Source: Scandinavium sp.
Lineage (GTDB): Bacteria > Pseudomonadota > Gammaproteobacteria > Enterobacterales > Enterobacteriaceae
Direction of reading: 5' to 3'
DNA length: 32,000 bases
NCBI RefSeq assembly: GCF_051650185.1
Contig: NZ_JBOFIN010000108.1
Coordinates: 29,889-61,888 of the forward strand
Shown here: positions 1,279 to 22,465 of the stretch, one piece after another
Numbering within the stretch: position 1 is the stretch's first letter
Layout of the letters: the number at the start of each line of letters is the position of its first letter
Program-made: the position numbers and the translations under genes
The notes under the pieces: model-generated
Seen by the model: the letters and a program-made list of their open reading frames with translations, nothing else
What the model was told of the DNA's origin: nothing
Database searches by the model: none

Positions 1279-1354
1279 TGGTTCGCCTGGCTGGATTCGA
1301 ACCAGCGACCGACTGCTTAGAAGGCAGATGCTCTATCCCCTGAGCTACAGGCAA
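1279..1354 (-). tRNA. tRNA-Arg (anticodon UCU, reads AGA)
   Basis: The reverse complement folds as a 76-nt cloverleaf. Acceptor stem is TTGCCTG/CAGGCGA with one G-U pair. D arm is GCTC-AGGGGATA-GAGC. Anticodon arm is TCTGC-CTTCTAA-GCAGT (4 WC pairs plus 1 mismatch, anticodon TCT). Variable region is CGGTC. T arm is GCTGG-TTCGAAT-CCAGC. Discriminator is A and CCA is encoded. Confidence 0.9.
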
Positions 1355-1425: not shown

Positions 1426-2112
1426 TCAATCCAGTTTTGCAAGACTTGCGTCCAAATTTGTCGCCTTTTGTTGTGAACGTGATCGCATTACATGATGCAG
1501 CGCGTCGGTATCGAGTCGGCGGTAGATGCGTTTCATCGCCAGCCAGCGCTCCGTGAATGTCTCAGACCAGTTCTTCTGGTTCACCCCTACCAGCTCAGCC
1601 AGTTCCTGATACTCGTAAGTGTCGCGCCCTGCCAACTCTGCTTTCGCGTCCTGAGCAGCAAGCCACACGAGGCTACGCAGCCGATCGACTGTTTTCCCGG
1701 CCACGCGCTTCCCGGCAAGTTCCTTCTGGAACTCGGACCATGCCCACTGCGTAATACTGACCTGATTCTCGAAGCGGATGCTCTCGCTGTAGTTCCATAA
1801 CAGCCATGCTTTCTGATGCTCGTCGAGAGACAGCAGTGCCCGGCGCCATGAAGCGGTCGCGAACTCTACCGGCTGCACCAGGGGGATATGCGAACCCTTA
1901 GCGCGTGACTGCTTCCCTGGTATCGGCGGATTATCCAGCGTCACCCACTTTTCCGTTTCTTCATCGAGTACCCGCATTTTCTTACGCTTGAATGTGTTGG
2001 TGTCGAACTGTGCATTCTCCAGCCATGCCATCAACTGGTCTTTGGTTGCTCCACTCAGATCGGTAGTGGCGAGGATGAGCTGCTGGCGTACGTACGATAA
2101 ATTGATAGTCAT
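1426..2112 (-). CDS. Q: Late-gene antiterminator Q-like protein
   Basis: 228 aa. It is the last gene of the nin operon, directly upstream of two terminators and the lysis cassette. AGGAG lies 9 nt upstream and the start overlaps the preceding ORF as ATGA. The family call rests on position plus a vague memory of similar 'antitermination protein Q' entries. Confidence 0.6.
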   Translation of the reverse strand: MTINLSYVRQQLILATTDLSGATKDQLMAWLENAQFDTNTFKRKKMRVLDEETEKWVTLDNPPIPGKQSRAKGSHIPLVQPVEFATASWRRALLSLDEHQKAWLLWNYSESIRFENQVSITQWAWSEFQKELAGKRVAGKTVDRLRSLVWLAAQDAKAELAGRDTYEYQELAELVGVNQKNWSETFTERWLAMKRIYRRLDTDALHHVMRSRSQQKATNLDASLAKLD

Positions 2113-2249
2113 AGTGCAGCTCCTGTTGCGCGATAAACGGTGATGAAATTTCGAAGGATGCGGTAGTCATGCAGAACCGAACCCGGGTAGCGGTAAATCC
2201 GCAGGAATTGCCACCGAGTGCGGAGTGCCTCAATGATTTCTGTCTTCAT
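2109..2249 (-). CDS. Small 46-aa ORF absent from the ORF track, translationally coupled between ninG and Q
   Basis: Translation is MKTEIIEALRTRWQFLRIYRYPGSVLHDYRILRNFITVYRATGAAL. It has ATGA start/stop overlaps with both ninG (2246-2249) and Q (2109-2112). AGGAGG lies 5 nt upstream. Confidence 0.55.
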   Translation of the reverse strand: MKTEIIEALRTRWQFLRIYRYPGSVLHDYRILRNFITVYRATGAAL

Positions 2250-2866
2250 GCAGCCTCCTGCTGGCGGGCTCGTCGCTTCTCCAGCGCTCGGGATTTGCGT
2301 GTGAAAATAGATTTGATGCGCTGCAGGTATGGAATATCGAATTTTCGCGTAGAGTTATCGTTGTTGAGGGCTTCAACCCTCTCCCGCCCAATACGCTCAA
2401 TTAGTCCCTGTTCAAATGCTTTCTGTGCGCCAGACTGATTGCGGTTACAGCGGACGCACTGTCCTGCGACGTTATTTAGGTTGAATGAGAGATGTGCGGC
2501 TGCGCCTCGGGACCTGTAGTGGCCACAGTCCATGGTTCCCCCGAATTTCTGTTCAGGGGTGGCACCGCAGCTTATGCAAGGAAGTCCGGCATCACGTAGG
2601 CGCACGTACTTATTGAATGCCGCCTGGGCCTCTTTCTTCCATTGAGGCTTGGTCTTGAGTGCTGCCTTGCGGATCTTCAGCTCACGGCGTTCCTGCTGGG
2701 TTTCCTGCTTACGTTTGCGCTCGGCTTCCAGCTTCTTCTTGGCAAGCAACTGCTGGCTGTACTCGTAGCCGTGTTCCGGACAGCACCACCAGACATTGGC
2801 GAACGTGGCCACAAACTTTTCTTTGCAGATTTTGCAGGTGCGGCGGGATGGTTTACGCATCATCAT
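2246..2866 (-). CDS. ninG: NinG / Rap recombination endonuclease
   Basis: 206 aa, colinear with lambda NinG. Shared segments include MMxKPxRRxCK, LKIRKxALKxxxxW, LPCISCG, DxGHYR and QCVxCN. Confidence 0.9.
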   Translation of the reverse strand: MMMRKPSRRTCKICKEKFVATFANVWWCCPEHGYEYSQQLLAKKKLEAERKRKQETQQERRELKIRKAALKTKPQWKKEAQAAFNKYVRLRDAGLPCISCGATPEQKFGGTMDCGHYRSRGAAAHLSFNLNNVAGQCVRCNRNQSGAQKAFEQGLIERIGRERVEALNNDNSTRKFDIPYLQRIKSIFTRKSRALEKRRARQQEAA

Positions 2867-3318
2867 GCCTCCTGCTTATCGCGCAGCTGCTCATACTCGC
2901 AGCCGTTAGGGATGGTCAACACCAGGCCGAACTGAGCACACCACATCTCAACCTTTACCAGGAAAATGTGCATTTCACCGGTATCAAGATCGGCAGTGTG
3001 CCGCGGCTCCCAGGTAGTGGTTTTCTCACCAGTGACGAAATCGGTGTATGTGACTTCCTGGCAGCCAAGGTAGGTTTTCTTGAGGTTGCGCTTCACCCAT
3101 TCAGGGGTTGCGTCGGTACGGCCGGAGTTAACCAGGTATTCGCTGATTTCGGTGTACCACATGTGGCTGAGTGCGTTCTGACTCAGGCTGCGCTTCTCGC
3201 GCCAGTCCTTCACCTGCAGGCGCAGGCATTTCCCTTCAGCGAGCTGCTGCTGAAGCAACTGGCTGATAGCGTTGAAGTTGCCGCTGTGGAGTTTGATACC
3301 GCATTGAGGGATGTTCAC
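2863..3318 (-). CDS. ninB: NinB / Orf-family recombination mediator
   Basis: 151 aa. GTG start with GGAGG 6 nt upstream. RSLSQNALSHMWYTEIS resembles lambda NinB RSLDQNRKLWACLGDVS. The stop overlaps ninG as ATGA. Confidence 0.7.
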   Translation of the reverse strand: MNIPQCGIKLHSGNFNAISQLLQQQLAEGKCLRLQVKDWREKRSLSQNALSHMWYTEISEYLVNSGRTDATPEWVKRNLKKTYLGCQEVTYTDFVTGEKTTTWEPRHTADLDTGEMHIFLVKVEMWCAQFGLVLTIPNGCEYEQLRDKQEA

Positions 3319-3509
3319 GCGCCACCTCCGCAGAGGTTAAACGCTGAATGCAGGAAATCGCCGGTGACGTTAGCCATCGGTGACAGGTGATGTGATGCTC
3401 GATTAGTCTTTTGCACTTTAACGTCCCCGTTAAAGCGCCAGATGCAGTGTCAGTTGTTCAGGCTGACACTGGTATTATGGACAGTTGATTCTGGAAAATC
3501 AAAGTTCTT

Positions 3510-4052
3510 TTAGTCTGCAAGAGTTGACGTCGTTGCGTCGAGATACTGCTTAAACTCAACAACTGTCATGGGGCTTTTCTGCGAAACATAGATAGTGTTT
3601 TCGGCCTCTTTCATTGGACCAGACTTATTAGTATCTTCAGTCAGGATGTATGTGTTACCGAAGCCTCTTGACCCAATTAACATGTCAGCTTCGTTACCAT
3701 AATAGATCCCCCGCTTAGACGATTTTATTTGACGGGCTGCTTTGTGGAAGAATTCATCTTGATGAACTGACGCGAACCCTCCAACGCCAAATCCGCCAAA
3801 CCTCTGCTCATCGGCAGGGACTGAGTCATCATAAAAACCAAAATAGCACAAGGGTTCTTCAAGCGACTGGGTCTCGCTTACAAAAAAGTTGTATAGGGCT
3901 TCCTTCCCCTCCTTGCCTTGCAACTCCTGCATTTCACGAGATATTTCACGCGTTATCTGGAATCGATAGTCACTTAGATGCTCGCTGCTTAGAGAAATCC
4001 CGCTCTCGTGCAAAAAATTCCAGGCATTTGAATCAACAATGATGTCAATCAC
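3510..4052 (-). CDS. Hypothetical 180-aa protein with a PIN-like acidic tetrad (candidate nuclease/toxin)
   Basis: GTG start with GGGAG 8-9 nt upstream. N-terminus MIDIIVDSNAW carries D7. ITREISRE carries E36/E40. GNEADMLIG carries D123. YILTEDTN carries D140. These match the four-acidic-residue order and the 17-residue D-to-D spacing typical of PIN domains. GC is visibly lower than in the flanks. Confidence 0.45.
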   Translation of the reverse strand: MIDIIVDSNAWNFLHESGISLSSEHLSDYRFQITREISREMQELQGKEGKEALYNFFVSETQSLEEPLCYFGFYDDSVPADEQRFGGFGVGGFASVHQDEFFHKAARQIKSSKRGIYYGNEADMLIGSRGFGNTYILTEDTNKSGPMKEAENTIYVSQKSPMTVVEFKQYLDATTSTLAD

Positions 4053-4070
4053 TTAAAAAATCTCCCATCT

Positions 4071-4096
4071 AAAAAACACTCAACCATAGGTTTGAG
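4071..4096 (-). terminator. Terminator/attenuator-like hairpin between the 84-aa and 180-aa genes
   Basis: Minus strand reads CTCAAACC-TAT-GGTTGAG (one bulge) followed by TGTTTTTT. It starts right after the TAA of the upstream gene and ends just before the downstream RBS. Confidence 0.5.
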
Positions 4097-4097
4097 C

Positions 4098-4352
4098 TTA
4101 TTTTTTATTTGCCTCTGCCATTTCCGTATAGCGGGGATCGGATGCCCTCGGTAACGTTATCGACTGCTCACGGTAAAACCTTACTCGCTCCATGAAGTAC
4201 TCGCGAAGGTGTTCTGGCTGTTCCCGGGCAACCTGCTCTGCCACTACCGGTTGATTCATGCGCTCTTTGAAAGCAACGCCGCTGGCGGCCAGGTCAATAT
4301 TCACCTTGTCGCGTTCTTCCTGGCTCTTTGCTGCGATGTTGAATTTTGACAT
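4098..4352 (-). CDS. Hypothetical 84-aa protein (candidate partner/antitoxin of the PIN-like gene)
   Basis: I prefer the internal ATG at 4352 ([16 protein letters not shown]) because GGAG lies 6 nt upstream. The 104-aa track ORF start lacks an RBS and overlaps the upstream gene. Confidence 0.55.
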
Positions 4353-4362
4353 AGAAGCTCCG

Positions 4363-4731
4363 TCACTGAGTCCGGGTACAAATGAGGGCCGTAACTCCAA
4401 GCACTTTATCATCCCAAGGGCCTTTGGAATCAGTCTGATCTAACTCCCTTGTCAAAAGAGAGTAATAGGGGCCACCCATGAATTGTAAATCAATGGTGGT
4501 GGTTAGGTAGGTTTTACCGTGATACCCCTGAGCTTGTAGGCGATCGCCACTAAGTTCAGAAACTTCGGCATCAAAATCACCATTGATGACAACATGCTTC
4601 TTATCAACAACGTGGATTTTCACACCCGCCTGACACTCAAACGTAATGGGTTGCTGTTTATCAAAAGGAATATAGTCGGCGTGAGCCATAAGTGGAGCTA
4701 TCAAAACCACTGCTGCGATCAGCGTTTTCAT
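4363..4731 (-). CDS. Small secreted (periplasmic) protein, function unknown
   Basis: From the ATG at 4731 (or 4737) the product begins [20 protein letters not shown], a classical Sec signal with an AHA cleavage site. The mature protein is about 104 aa with 2 Cys. Its stop TGA overlaps the RBS of the 84-aa gene. Confidence 0.6.
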
Positions 4732-4744
4732 GTTCATTAGCCAT

Positions 4745-4774
4745 AACAAAAAGAGCCATACGTTAGCATGGCCC
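4745..4774 (-). terminator. Rho-independent terminator after the 245-aa gene, immediately upstream of the cassette
   Basis: Minus strand reads GGGCCAT-GCTAACGT-ATGGCTC (one G-U pair) followed by TTTTTGTT. Confidence 0.6.
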
Positions 4775-4797
4775 ATGAAGCTTTGTTTTGCGCTTAA

Positions 4798-5535
4798 TCA
4801 CTCCTGCTGCGGTGCTGCTGCAATCATGGCCTTGTGCATTGCGTCGTAGCCATCCTCCTCTACCCGCCTTGCTGCATCAATCATCGCGCGAGTCGCATCA
4901 AACGGCACCATTACCCAACCATCCGGAATCACCTGATAGCTGCCATAACTGGACGCGGAAGCAAGACGTAACGACAGCAATTCACGATAAGCATTAGACT
5001 GCGGATTATTGCCGTGAATCATCCCTTCCAGGTCTTCGTTTGTGAATGAGTTATCAGGCAACTTGTAAGGCTGGATTGCATGTTCGGAATTACCGGACAA
5101 CTGCGGGGCGGCGACATTTGCAAACGCAGCACGCAAACCTATTTTGATGTCTTCCGCATCGTCAGCGCCGACCGGGTCATCGGAAATAGCACGACAGAAT
5201 GCAAATGCCATCTCGTCGTTTATCTCGATGGGTGCCGCTTTCCGGTATTCCTGAAGTTCTGCGCGTTCCGCTGCGCTGTCCTGACCGTATTGCCGAACGC
5301 GATCCCACAGCGACAATGGGCCATACTCTAACTCTTTCGGTACGTTCAGCTCATCCAAACAAAATGAAACCAGCTCTGCAGCCTCGTAACCCCGCCGTAA
5401 AGCTCCCTCAGCAAGCCTGTGTTCCCGAAGCTCGTTAACAATCAGGGCCAGCTCCTCGCCGCTTATATTCACTACACGCGCATGGTGTGATGCGAGGTAT
5501 TGCAGACGATGCTCTGTTGGTTTGTTATTGGTCAT
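4798..5535 (-). CDS. Hypothetical nin-region protein (245 aa)
   Basis: Long ORF. I prefer the ATG at 5535 (MTNNKPTEHRL), which overlaps the upstream stop by 11 nt. No motif recognised. Confidence 0.6.
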   Translation of the reverse strand: MTNNKPTEHRLQYLASHHARVVNISGEELALIVNELREHRLAEGALRRGYEAAELVSFCLDELNVPKELEYGPLSLWDRVRQYGQDSAAERAELQEYRKAAPIEINDEMAFAFCRAISDDPVGADDAEDIKIGLRAAFANVAAPQLSGNSEHAIQPYKLPDNSFTNEDLEGMIHGNNPQSNAYRELLSLRLASASSYGSYQVIPDGWVMVPFDATRAMIDAARRVEEDGYDAMHKAMIAAAPQQE

Positions 5536-5998
5536 TGGCCTGCTCCTTGATATGTAATCGGGGTTCACCGTCTTTGGGCTCCGGCCACTGGCGTGCCATG
5601 TTTACTTTCAGCTTTTCTTCCATCGCGGCTGTAATTTCGCCATCAGATATACCGGCGCGGCGCTGGGCATCCCATAGCAGAAACTGCATATCTGCCCATT
5701 CGCTCAGGTCGTAAGGTTGGGCGGCAGCCTCCAGCGCTTCTTTAGACAGGTGCTTAAGCGGGCCTATTGGCCCGACATAGCCGAAAGTTTTATCCGACCA
5801 TTCGGCGTGCCGCTGTCGAATGAGATTGCGCAGCTGAAACAGTGGGCCTGTCTCCTGCTTCATGCCAGCCAGCAGCATGCGTGCCATTTCAAGCTCTTCT
5901 TCCAGCCCTTCGCGAATGGCGGTGAACGCGCTTTGCGCTACGGCGAACTCCAACTTCGTAATCTTTTGCTGAACGCGCTCTTTGGTGATTGTGGTCAT
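5525..5998 (-). CDS. Probable DUF550 / MazG-like nucleotide pyrophosphohydrolase
   Basis: 157 aa. The segment KTFGYVGPIGPLKHLSKEALEAA..DLSEWADMQFLLWDAQRRAGI resembles lambdoid nin-region DUF550 (dATP/dGTP pyrophosphohydrolase-like) proteins as I recall them. Confidence 0.5.
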   Translation of the reverse strand: MTTITKERVQQKITKLEFAVAQSAFTAIREGLEEELEMARMLLAGMKQETGPLFQLRNLIRQRHAEWSDKTFGYVGPIGPLKHLSKEALEAAAQPYDLSEWADMQFLLWDAQRRAGISDGEITAAMEEKLKVNMARQWPEPKDGEPRLHIKEQANDQ

Positions 5999-18940: not shown

Positions 18941-20239
18941 ATGGCTAAGTCAGCATACCCAACAGGCGTTGAGAATCATGGCGGATCGTTACGCATATGG
19001 TTCATCTATAAAGGCAGCCGGGTACGTGAAAGTCTCGGTGTGCCTGATACACCAAAGAACAGAAAGGTTGCTGGCGAGTTGCGCGCGTCGGTGTGCTTTT
19101 CGATAAAGACCGGAAGCTTTAATTATTCAGCTCAGTTTCCCGATTCGCCCAACCTGAAGAAATTCGGCGTTGAACGTCGGGAAATCACAGTCATTGAACT
19201 GGCCAGGAAATGGCTTGAGTTGAAGAAGATGGAAATAAGTACCAATGCCCTGGGCAGGTATCAGTCTATCGTCAGAAATATGGTGCCAAGAATTGGAGAC
19301 AGCAGGCTTGCATCCTCGGTTACACCTGAAGATCTGCTGTTCATAAGGAAAGACCTGTTAACCGGCTACCAAGTCATGAAGAAGGGACACCGCACCCCGG
19401 TAAAAGGCAGGACTGTGCCAACAGTGAACAACTACATGGGCATTATGGCCGGTATGTTTCAGTTTGGTGCCGATAGCGGTTATATCAGGACCAACCCTTT
19501 CTCAGGCATAACACCTCTGAAGAAAGCGCGTGCGGAACCGGACCCACTCACCCGAGATGAGTTCGTTCGACTGATTGAGGCATGTCGTCATCAGCAACTG
19601 AAGAACATGTGGTCGCTGGCAGTCTATACCGGTGTTCGCCACGGTGAACTTGTATCACTGGCATGGGAGGATATCGATCTCAAAGCTGGAACGATGACGA
19701 TCCGACGTAACCATACTCTGACGAAGGAGTTTACTCTCCCAAAAACAGATGCAGGAACGGACAGGGTTGTTCACCTGATCCAGCCAGCGCTTGACGTACT
19801 CAGAAATCAGGCCGAACTGACGAGGCTTGGGAAGCAGTATCAAATTGAAGTAAAGCTCAGGGAGTATGGCAGGACAGAAATTCATCCGTGCACTTTCGTG
19901 TTCAACCCACAGATCGGAACGCATAACAGCCTGGCAGGGCATCATTACGCGGTTGGATCTATTAACCAGAGTTGGGAGGCAGCAATGCGGCGCGCCGGGA
20001 TTCGCTACCGCAAAGCATATCAGTCCAGGCATACATACGCATGCTGGTCTTTAACTGCCGGAGCTAACCCAAACTTCATAGCCAAGCAAATGGGCCACTC
20101 TGATGCTCAGATGGTTTATCGGGTCTACGGATCGTGGATGGCTGAAAACAATCAGGACCAGATACTCATTCTGAACCAAAAATTAAGTGAGTTTGCCCCA
20201 TCCATGCCCCACGCAATGGGATCGGATGTTAATAAATAA
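18941..20239 (+). CDS. int: Tyrosine integrase
   Basis: 432 aa with a GGAGGG RBS. The arm-binding N-terminus is GVENHGGSLRIWFIYKGSRVRESLG. The catalytic signature is RHGEL, YQSRHTYACW, GHSDAQMVYRVYGSW. Confidence 0.92.
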   Translation: MAKSAYPTGVENHGGSLRIWFIYKGSRVRESLGVPDTPKNRKVAGELRASVCFSIKTGSFNYSAQFPDSPNLKKFGVERREITVIELARKWLELKKMEISTNALGRYQSIVRNMVPRIGDSRLASSVTPEDLLFIRKDLLTGYQVMKKGHRTPVKGRTVPTVNNYMGIMAGMFQFGADSGYIRTNPFSGITPLKKARAEPDPLTRDEFVRLIEACRHQQLKNMWSLAVYTGVRHGELVSLAWEDIDLKAGTMTIRRNHTLTKEFTLPKTDAGTDRVVHLIQPALDVLRNQAELTRLGKQYQIEVKLREYGRTEIHPCTFVFNPQIGTHNSLAGHHYAVGSINQSWEAAMRRAGIRYRKAYQSRHTYACWSLTAGANPNFIAKQMGHSDAQMVYRVYGSWMAENNQDQILILNQKLSEFAPSMPHAMGSDVNK

Positions 20240-20248
20240 TAATATTCA

Positions 20249-20266
20249 GTAGGTTATGTAACCTAC
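20249..20266. repeat. Perfect 8-bp inverted repeat (GTAGGTTA-TG-TAACCTAC) at the prophage/chromosome junction, overlapping the fliE stop codon
   Basis: Read directly from the sequence. On the fliE strand it is followed by AT/T-rich sequence (TGAATATTATTATTTATT). Confidence 0.6.
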
Positions 20267-20574
20267 ACCTGCATGCTCATCATTTCCTGATAAGCCGCTA
20301 CCAGCTTATTGCGCACCTGAATGCCCATCTGCAACGAGACGGACGATTTTTGCAGGTCGGTCATCACATCGTTTAATGCCACGCCCGGTTCCCCTATCGC
20401 AAACTTCTCGGCCTGGGCTTTGGCGCTGTTTTGCGTTTCGCTGATGCGGTCGAGCGCAGAGCTTAACTGCCCGGCAAAGCTGATGGACGGCTGTTCTTCA
20501 ACTGCCTGATTGCGGGCGACGCTGGCGGCTGCCTGCATCTGCGTCAGTACCCCTTCGATACCTGTGATGGCCAT
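20263..20574 (-). CDS. fliE: Flagellar hook-basal body protein FliE
   Basis: 103 aa, near-colinear with E. coli FliE ([47 protein letters not shown]). Confidence 0.97.
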
Positions 20575-20788
20575 GTTTATCCCCTGGTCGATGTCATGGA
20601 GGATGAGATTAGCAGCTTGTCAATAAGATAAAGGCGCTAATTAGCGTGAAAAAACCCGACTATTTGACCCATAGAAAATCGCGGAACGTCAAATAATGGC
20701 ATGGCTATCACTTTGCCTTTGCCGACCGGGAGTCAGCCTTGTTTTTGTCCACGTTTAACACCAGCGATCCGTATTTGCGAGGTGCGCA
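20575..20788. promoter_or_regulatory. Divergent fliE/fliF class 2 promoter region
   Basis: Assigned by synteny only. I could not confidently place the FlhDC boxes or the -10/-35 elements by eye. Confidence 0.5.
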
Positions 20789-22465
20789 ATGAGCGCGACA
20801 GCCACGACCACAGCCCAAACAAAGATGCCTGAGTGGGTCGCTCGCCTGCGCGCTAACCCGAAAATCCCCCTTATGGTGGCAAGTGCCGCGGCGGTGGCTA
20901 TCATCGTCGCCCTGGTGCTGTGGGCAAAGCAGCCGGACTACCGCACGCTGTTCAGTAATCTGACCGATCAGGACGGCGGCGCCATCGTCACCCAACTTCA
21001 GCAGATGAATGTGCCTTATCGCTTTGCCGATAGCGGCGGCGCGATTGAAGTGCCTGCCGATAAAGTGCATGAGCTGCGTCTGCGTCTGGCTCAGGCCGGG
21101 TTGCCAAAAGGCGGTGCGGTTGGGTTTGAGCTGCTGGATCAGGAAAAATTTGGTATCAGCCAGTTCAGCGAGCAGGTGAACTATCAGCGCGCGCTGGAAG
21201 GTGAACTCGCCCGAACCATCGAAACGCTCGGCCCGGTAAAAAGTGCACGTGTTCACCTTGCGATGCCGAAACCGTCGCTGTTCGTGCGTGAACAGAAACA
21301 GCCTTCTGCCTCCGTGACCCTGAACCTTGAGCCCGGTCGTGCGCTGGATGAAGGCCAGATCGCGGCAGTGGTGCATTTAGTGTCGAGTGCCGTCGCGGGG
21401 CTTCCGCCGGGCAACGTGACGCTGGTCGATCAGGGCGGCCATCTGCTGACCCAGTCGAATACCGGCGATCGCGACCTGAACGACACCCAGCTCAAATACT
21501 CTGCCGATGTGGAAAGCCGCATCCAGCGTCGTATTGAATCCATCCTGTCGCCGATTGTCGGCAACGGCAACGTTCACGCGCAGGTCACCGCGCAGATCAA
21601 CTTCGACAATAAAGAACAAACTCAGGAGCAGTACAGCCCGAATGGCGATGCCAGCCAGGCCGTGATGCGCTCCCGTCAGGTGAATGAGAGCGAACAGGTT
21701 GGCAGCCCTTATCCGGGCGGCGTACCAGGCGCGTTGTCCAACTCCCCTGCCCCTGCGCCAAATGCGCCAATCTCGACGCCGCCTGCAAACCAGAATGCGG
21801 CCCAGGGCCAGCAGCGGACCACCAGCAGCAACAACCAGAGTGGCCCGCGCAACTCCTCGCGTAACGAAACCACCAACTACGAAGTCGACCGCACCATCCT
21901 GCACACCAAAATGAACGTCGGTGACGTGCAGCGCCTGTCCGTTGCGGTGGTGGTGAATTACAAAAATCTGCCGGACGGCAAGCCGCTGCCGCTGACCACC
22001 GATCAGATGAAACAGATTGAAGACCTGACTCGCGAAGCGATGGGCTACTCCACCACCCGTGGCGACACCCTCAACGTGGTCAACTCGCCGTTTACCGCCG
22101 GGGATGAAACCGGAGGCGAACTGCCGTTCTGGCAACAGCAGTCGTTTATCGATCAGCTGATGTCTGCCGGTCGCTGGCTGCTGATTGCGCTCGTGGCCTG
22201 GATCCTGTGGCGTAAAGCCGTTCGTCCGCAGTTCACCCGCCGTCAGGAAGTGCTGAAGGCCGCGCAGGAAGAAGCGCGCATTGAACGTGAAATGGCGCAG
22301 GCGGTGGAAGTTCACCTCAGCAAAGATGAGCAACAGCAGAGTCGCCGTGCCAACCAGCGCCTGAGCGCCGAGGTGATGAGCCAGCGTATTCGTGAAATGT
22401 CAGACAACGATCCGCGCGTCGTCGCGCTGGTCATTCGCCAGTGGATGAGCAACGACCATGAGTAA
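20789..22465 (+). CDS. fliF: Flagellar MS-ring protein FliF
   Basis: 558 aa, with conserved FliF N- and C-terminal blocks and the expected position. Confidence 0.97.

Follow-up and report, generated by a model that had tools for sequence, protein, structure and literature searches.

How does a phage keep a VapC-like active site harmless, or to what use does it put one? The question is raised by a block of three genes (3510–4775) on the minus strand of a lambdoid prophage of Scandinavium sp., in which the last gene encodes a protein of predicted PIN-like fold and the gene before it a homologue of the phage P1 protein Hot. The stretch of DNA analysed, called the window below, covers 32,000 nt (contig NZ_JBOFIN010000108.1, positions 29,889–61,888 of the forward strand), and coordinates are counted from its first position unless another locus is named. 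An initial annotation, made from the letters of this DNA alone, had listed three co-oriented open reading frames (ORFs) in the block, and all three are borne out: ORF122 (4731–4363, 122 aa), ORF84 (4352–4098, 84 aa) and ORF180 (4052–3510, 180 aa, with a GTG start). It had read them as a candidate toxin–antitoxin (TA) or abortive-infection (Abi) module. The observation was largely right and the guess of a PIN nuclease a good one; the TA/Abi reading and the unity of the three genes are unsupported. The reading that we prefer, with moderate confidence, is that ORF180 is a solitary, metal-dependent and probably RNA-directed endonuclease acting alone in lytic growth, and that the block around it is mosaic cargo.

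The ORF180 family and its predicted fold

ORF180 (3510–4052, minus strand; ribosome-binding site (RBS) GGGAG) belongs to an uncharacterised family. It matches PHROG 26388, a family of unknown function (E 6e-68), and has no match in Pfam (E ≤ 1), NCBIfam or PADLOC, nor by tblastn among sequenced phages. Close homologues (n = 25) occur in Enterobacter, Raoultella, Pantoea, Dickeya and Phytobacter, two of the homologues being labelled PIN domain-containing in UniRef, and an exhaustive profile search (E ≤ 1e-3) extends the family to 257 clusters at 50% identity. The initial annotation had singled out the acidic residues D7, E36, E40, D123 and D140, in an order that fits a PIN active site with an unusually long insert between the second and third acidic residues. 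All five are present and keep that order, and they are invariant in 19 homologous sequences together with N9, W11, T34, E82, R84, N120, E121 and T138. Across 83 diverse members D123 is still invariant, and D7, W11, E40, F71, G72, F73, G87 and E121 each show conservation of 90% or more. The insert is equally real: it is a conserved stretch of ~50 aa (residues ~62–112) that carries the motif FGF...EQRxGGFGxGxF, and the protein also has a C-terminal helix.

In the AlphaFold model of ORF180 (pLDDT 82.8, pTM 0.80, with residues ~70–95 inside the insert less confident) a three-layer alpha/beta/alpha arrangement with a parallel sheet places acidic residues at the C-terminal ends of the strands, as in the PIN-like superfamily. 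When the model was run through Foldseek, the PDB matches were mostly PIN nucleases, and VapC of Shigella flexneri came first (PDB ID: 3TND; E 8.8e-3, probability 0.99). The VapC matches were from Shigella, Rickettsia, Haemophilus, Caulobacter and Mycobacterium, the other PDB matches included Nmd4, Utp24, SMG6, FitB and HARP, and all of the closest structural neighbours are PIN domains that cleave RNA. The likeness to VapC (PF01850) holds for the order of the motifs, with an Asp at the end of beta1 (IIVDSNAW in ORF180, MLDTNICI in VapC) followed by a helix Glu, a third Asp in the context D-x-[ML]-I-[GA]-x-x-[SA]-R and a fourth position within [IV]-[LV]-T-x-[DN]. The two differ in length, ORF180 being ~50 residues longer because of the C-terminal helix and the conserved insert, which separates helix 3 from the third acidic residue.

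Several points weigh against the PIN assignment and so against the preferred reading. The fold is deduced from a predicted model, the Foldseek E-values are only ~1e-2, and the TM-scores are 0.43–0.49 when normalised to the query and 0.54–0.63 when normalised to the target. PIN homology is not detectable at the level of sequence profiles, where ORF180 matches no hidden Markov model (HMM) of VapC or of the PIN clan. Searching the PDB by hmmsearch with the family profiles gave chance-level matches only, among them a PIN structure (PDB ID: 1O4W) at E 0.5, and hhalign of the ORF180 family profile was not significant against a VapC sequence and reached a probability of 1.3% against a 23-member VapC alignment. 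The one local VapC match from hhalign pairs D123 with the catalytic D98 and ILTED with IVTNN, and four of the 83 family members have single sub-threshold Pfam matches, to PIN, DUF4411, NYN and PIN_9. We conclude that ORF180 is very probably PIN-like, at the level of the fold only.

Read in this way, ORF180 would be a metal (Mg)-dependent endonuclease with a VapC-type acidic pocket, the quartet D7, E40, D123 and D140 of the PIN fold being joined by E36 and E121. The insert (FGF...EQRFGGFGVGGF) would probably bind the substrate, bind a partner or regulate the enzyme itself. The enzyme might help in taking over the host, in countering defences or in competing with other mobile elements. ORF180 differs from VapBC systems in that it has no VapB-type antitoxin (AbrB, RHH, HTH or Phd) and commonly lacks any partner gene next to it, and a search of the DNA for tandem repeats that might form an RNA antitoxin found none; the nuclease would work without a protein antitoxin. 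If it is active, it founds an unannotated PIN-like family of ~257 clusters, with no Pfam model and a single PHROG of unknown function, spread over temperate phages, plasmids and small chromosomal islets and presumably independent of antitoxins throughout. As a side observation, an alternative-frame ORF of 45–78 aa recurs inside the PIN gene (3725–3862 on the minus strand of the window, 5176–5328 in locus L018 and 5167–5403 in locus L023), most likely as a by-product of conservation of the DNA.

Hot and its linkage to the putative nuclease gene

The initial annotation had recognised a named family in none of the three proteins and had cast ORF84 (4098–4352, minus strand) as the small upstream partner expected of an antitoxin. 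Neither view holds, for ORF84 is a clear member of the DNA polymerase III theta family and an orthologue of P1 Hot, a homologue of theta (HolE), which is not an antitoxin type. Over its whole length and above curated cutoffs it matches the Pfam family PF06440 (DNA_pol3_theta; E 1.9e-34, 117.6 bits against a cutoff of 34.6) and the NCBIfam family PRK10969 (105 bits against a cutoff of 97). It also matches PHROG 1105 and, in the PDB, P1 Hot (PDB IDs: 1SE7, 2IDO; E 1.1e-33) and E. coli theta (PDB ID: 1DU2; E 1.3e-20). By tblastn it is 74.7% identical to P1 hot and 84.5% identical to the theta of Klebsiella phage RothD. It has the C-terminal tail of the phage Hot proteins and no DNA-binding antitoxin domain; nothing notable separates the protein from Hot/HolE, and what is unusual is its frequent PIN-like downstream neighbour. 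Since it shares 75% identity with Hot, whose complex with epsilon has been solved (PDB ID: 2IDO), ORF84 should by homology bind and stabilise the epsilon proofreading subunit (DnaQ) of the host polymerase (Pol III). By tblastn, 36 of the 50,697 phage records carry a theta gene, whose position in the genome varies, and none of the 36 has an ORF180 homologue. In HK639 and RothD it occupies the same place as in the window, upstream of ninB, and in ZF40 and BZS1 it lies instead after the lysis genes.

To count linkage we considered PIN genes at least 50% identical to ORF180, which fall into ~15 distinct lineages. A full theta gene lies at most 1.1 kb upstream in ~10 of these, though theta is rare in phages, and with only 36 theta-bearing records among the 50,697 this linkage is non-random and far above chance. 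The gap between the genes is 45 nt in the window, 51 nt in Enterobacter quasiroggenkampii, viral and metagenome contigs, and ~900 nt in the E. asburiae group. In Pantoea-type phages the pair follows Erf/SSB or RecT within the leftward early operon, and its codons overlap (ATGA) or abut. These observations tell against a nuclease that acts alone: the linkage is frequent, it is kept when the pair moves out of the nin region into the leftward early operon, the stop and start codons of the Pantoea pairs often overlap, and persistence across two operon positions makes a functional link possible. A literature search on theta with PIN in prophages, on P1 hot, on holE/theta in lambdoid phages and on PIN proteins of the nin region returned nothing relevant.

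PIN genes are also found apart from theta. Intact copies have no theta within 5 kb in Phytobacter (loci L009 and L028) and in loci L020, L022 and L023, and in Raoultella (L030 and L031) theta is interrupted at codon 32–34 by a PIN gene that is itself intact. In locus L047 an intact PIN gene is preceded by a theta gene (1840–2066) that has an in-frame stop close to the 5′ end (MMATSR*ERDR..., the asterisk marking the stop); this theta copy is probably a pseudogene, or else starts further downstream. More distant relatives of ORF180, at ~30% identity, are solitary in Chromohalobacter, Azonexus and Hydrogenovibrio and on plasmids of Nitrosospira and Photobacterium, and no conserved partner was found among the neighbours of distant relatives. 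In a tree of theta sequences the PIN-linked copies are polyphyletic, and the theta of the window is closest to PIN-less copies of Klebsiella phages. Theta as an obligate partner of PIN was rejected on two grounds, the occurrence of PIN without theta and the polyphyly of the tree.

These facts bear on whether Hot and PIN form a two-gene TA or Abi module, without ORF122, in which PIN is the toxin and the theta fold a repurposed antitoxin or sensor. Such a module would account for the small upstream gene and the order of antitoxin then toxin, for the 4-nt ATGA overlap of the Pantoea-type loci, for the strong tendency of theta to accompany PIN on its upstream side in two operon contexts and for VapC as the best structural match. 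It is hard to reconcile with a presumed antitoxin so close to the functional Hot of P1 and devoid of a DNA-binding antitoxin domain, with PIN-linked thetas that form no distinct clade, or with intact PIN genes whose theta is missing (four lineages), split (L030) or stop-containing (L047). Distant relatives are solitary, theta stands alone in the 36 phages, PADLOC is silent on the block, and the block, within an early lytic operon, has a terminator but no promoter-like site upstream of it. The near-obligate co-occurrence of toxin and antitoxin in VapBC is not seen for PIN and theta, and we consider a TA or Abi module very unlikely. More generally, a theta-fold Hot and a PIN nuclease could constitute a new two-component system in which a mimic of a replisome subunit controls the nuclease, delivers it or senses on its behalf. 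If true, it would account for the persistence of the pair in two different phage operons, and one form of it might be a switch for abortive infection or anti-defence that senses the state of the epsilon–theta complex of Pol III; we give the idea little credence. As a candidate TA or defence module the finding is weak, and most of the block is ordinary mosaic cargo.

A functional pair need not be a TA system. Hot and PIN might cooperate at the host replisome or in recombination, for instance through a nuclease that is delivered or tuned by epsilon–theta, which would fit the non-random linkage, the frequent translational coupling with hot and the neighbouring genes of DNA metabolism (MazG-like, NinB and NinG here; Erf/SSB or RecT in the Pantoea loci). 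Yet PIN genes persist beside absent, split or stop-containing thetas, the nearest structural neighbours of ORF180 are RNases and not FEN-type DNA nucleases, and neither an H3TH motif nor an extended acidic cluster is apparent among its motifs. Fragments of theta at the borders of PIN genes, moreover, supply a non-functional explanation of the linkage. We think such cooperation quite unlikely. What part Hot/theta homologues play in the life of phages could also be approached through the recurrent linkage of PIN and hot.

The fragments flank PIN in L030 (5840–6760; also in L031), L007 (6547–6670), L026 (5520–5640), L047 (2610–2740) and L027 (4860–4975). In Pantoea loci PIN is directly followed by a 3′ remnant of theta that derives from another allele, and in L027 a remnant directly precedes it, with a full theta 1 kb upstream. 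They suggest repeated recombination, or insertion, at hot. Similar marks involve the leader of ninB (3319–3509, minus strand), a 190-nt non-coding segment that bounds the block downstream and was examined with a promoter scan and RNAalifold. It contains a promoter-like TTGATT-17-CATAAT (3502–3474), hairpins at ~3471–3445 and ~3438–3413 and then the RBS of ninB; 43 pairs are predicted from its alignment, 19 of them with compensatory changes. The leader is present in 36 phage records, the loop of its first hairpin (GCCTGAACAAC) being invariant. The record of phage 82 (X92588) annotates it only with a putative −35/−10 and a “possible regulator-binding site”, and it matches no family in Rfam. Two copies of this leader bracket the PIN gene in L001 (5290–5520 and 6525–6740) and in L022 (4290–4520 and 5525–5740). 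The insert that splits theta in L030 comprises, in this order, 50 nt, the PIN gene and ~58 nt from the start of the ninB leader; the 9-nt imperfect repeat CT[A/G]AACATG stands at either end, and theta is split cleanly at CTGAACATG. The loop of the leader's first hairpin shares a 9-mer with theta.

A junction of this kind might also be made by a selfish, homing-endonuclease-like mobile gene, with ORF180 targeting hot or its surroundings. The presence or absence of PIN is polymorphic between closely related theta-bearing phages, its GC content is low, theta 3′ remnants flank it in the Pantoea loci, and in L030 PIN with its short flanks interrupts theta cleanly, with the imperfect repeat at both junctions. 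Microhomology between theta and the leader loop (GCCTGAACA) explains the L030 junction, however, the solitary chromosomal relatives are unconnected to theta, and we know of no PIN-type homing endonuclease, which counts against a gene of this kind; we regard it as highly improbable. The scars in theta and in the leader argue that recombination at hot and in its vicinity brought PIN in and spread it, which is a non-functional reason for the linkage. The link of PIN to hot is thus most likely more historical (insertional) than functional, and an obligate functional pairing is less likely. As theta fragments flank PIN in several lineages, the place of ORF180 just downstream of hot would most likely reflect a gene that was inserted there and then carried along.

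Transcription of the block and the slot upstream of ninB

The initial annotation had placed a terminator upstream of the block, and a scan finds a terminator-like hairpin there (GGGCCAUGC-UAAC-GUAUGGCUC followed by a U-run; 4743–4774, minus strand; −16.2 kcal/mol, z = −2.3), 3′ of a 256-aa ORF and 12 nt before ORF122. HK639 has an annotated terminator at the equivalent position upstream of its theta gene. An RBS of ORF84 was said to overlap the stop codon of ORF122: the RBS (GGAG) is indeed there, directly 3′ of the stop. A hairpin with a U-tract had further been proposed as an attenuator between ORF84 and ORF180. The 45-nt spacer (4053–4097, minus strand) does hold a weak bulged hairpin with U6 (~4071–4096; −10 kcal/mol), but it is no more stable than chance (z = −0.99, with 26 of 200 shuffles folding as well) and is not called in the terminator scan. 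L029 and L018, the nearest relatives, have a different spacer sequence, and where the genes overlap (ATGA, Pantoea-type) there is no spacer. The attenuator was rejected, being no better than shuffled sequence and not conserved.

A simple sigma-70 consensus scan of 3000–5200 found only two promoter-like sites, one far upstream and the other in the ninB leader, and none directly upstream of any of the three genes. Because a terminator stands upstream and no promoter of their own is seen, the three genes would most likely be delayed-early genes, reached by antiterminated RNA polymerase in the lytic cycle and silent in the repressed prophage. That this timing is drawn from a simple promoter scan is a further point against the preferred reading.

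The block fills a variable slot upstream of ninB with three independently assorting lambdoid accessory genes. As the initial annotation had seen, it is visibly richer in AT than its surroundings: the GC content of 3510–4775 is 0.459 compared to 0.533 for the window, within the lowest 0.7% of all 1266-nt windows, and the dip is carried by ORF180 (0.448) and ORF122 (0.455), ORF84 having 0.51. Its placement between two conserved nin-operon parts stands on the downstream side, where NinB is found, and is not confirmed upstream, where the 256-aa ORF is no recognised nin gene. Comparison across relatives shows the slot, between the replication genes and NinB/NinG/Q, to be variable, its content differing among HK639, RothD, L029, L022 and L023, and the three genes are not conserved core nin genes. 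Neither INPHARED phages nor 5,426 E. coli genomes gave a megablast match to the block. The nearest known parallel is the nin-region accessory genes, such as the small ORFs between ren or theta and ninB in HK639 and RothD. They occupy the same slot and likewise vary in content, their GC content is lower than that of the flanking DNA, and they lie between an upstream terminator and the conserved ninB leader. A classical moron brings along a promoter and a terminator of its own; for the block, the simple consensus scan detected no dedicated promoter.

ORF180 might alternatively be a single-gene defence factor (superinfection exclusion or Abi), or another gene of inter-element conflict, expressed by the prophage. 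The spread of the family over phages, plasmids and small islets would fit a defence gene as well and in this respect counts against the preferred reading; the distribution is sporadic and cargo-like, GC content is low, some distant loci have defence-like neighbours (a weak HEPN-like protein, a DUF262 protein), and in L001 and L022 the duplicated ninB leader puts a promoter-like sequence upstream of PIN. Most of the distant contexts are ordinary housekeeping neighbourhoods, however, PADLOC has no match (E ≤ 0.1) for ORF180, ORF84, ORF122 or the flanking genes, and in the window the PIN gene, which has no promoter-like site to itself, follows a terminator within a delayed-early operon. We consider a defence role unlikely, and retain the solitary lytic nuclease as the preferred reading.

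ORF122 and the prophage around the block

ORF122 (4363–4731, minus strand) encodes a small secreted protein. The Sec-type signal peptide proposed for it is confirmed, with cleavage at AHA|DY, and the protein has two invariant cysteines and no family in Pfam, PHROG, NCBIfam or PADLOC. Its homologues (n = 20) are from Enterobacter, Klebsiella, Raoultella and Lelliottia. The AlphaFold model (pLDDT 87.4) is an 8-stranded up-and-down beta-barrel, for which the best PDB matches by Foldseek have the avidin/streptavidin fold (E 5e-3, probability up to 1.0); the resemblance to avidins is one of fold only, at 8–17% identity and with no family HMM match. Outside the window no ORF122 homologue was found in any PIN-bearing locus, and the three-gene operon was accordingly rejected as a conserved unit. 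In a K. variicola prophage an ORF122 homologue precedes theta, and an unrelated 119-aa gene then follows. ORF122 is an independent cargo gene. A 71%-identical homologue is chromosomal, between an alpha-amylase gene and sufABCD/sufA (L038 4001–4369, L039 1410–1778), and the phage gene may be a captured host gene, or the reverse.

ORF180 and ORF122 are 100% identical to hypothetical proteins from a Scandinavium sp. metagenome-assembled genome, and together with the set of phage genes this shows the window to be a lambdoid prophage of that genome, adjoining the host flagellar operon, with the block within the rightward early operon. On the minus strand this operon runs through O, DnaB, accessory genes, NinB, NinG, Q, tRNA-Arg and lysis genes. 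Farther on, the window has phage O and DnaB-type genes, a cI-like repressor, Erf and the integrase, followed by host fliF–fliR. Downstream of the block the conserved anchor is the NinB/Orf-type recombination mediator (2863–3318, minus strand; PHROG 72, E 2.8e-46; NCBIfam PRK09741, 229 bits), for which the Pfam NinB match is sub-threshold. Family profile searches identify NinG (2246–2866, minus strand) and the Q antiterminator (1426–2112, minus strand). A tRNA-Arg (anticodon UCU; 1279–1354, minus strand) lies between Q and the holin/endolysin genes, and a tRNA is the sole Rfam match in searches of the window, the block and L001.

Upstream of the block, the 256-aa ORF (4798–5568, minus strand) is of unknown function, PHROG 12449 (itself of unknown function) being its sole match; its C-terminus resembles a nin-region protein of HK639 (34% over 91 aa). 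A MazG-like dATP/dGTP pyrophosphohydrolase gene (5525–5998, minus strand; Pfam E 5e-44) overlaps the start of this ORF by at most 44 nt. At the end of the prophage the integrase (18941–20239, plus strand) adjoins the host flagellar genes, fliF starting from 20789, and the attachment site is therefore placed near the fliE/fliF region (prophage end within 18941–22465 of the window).

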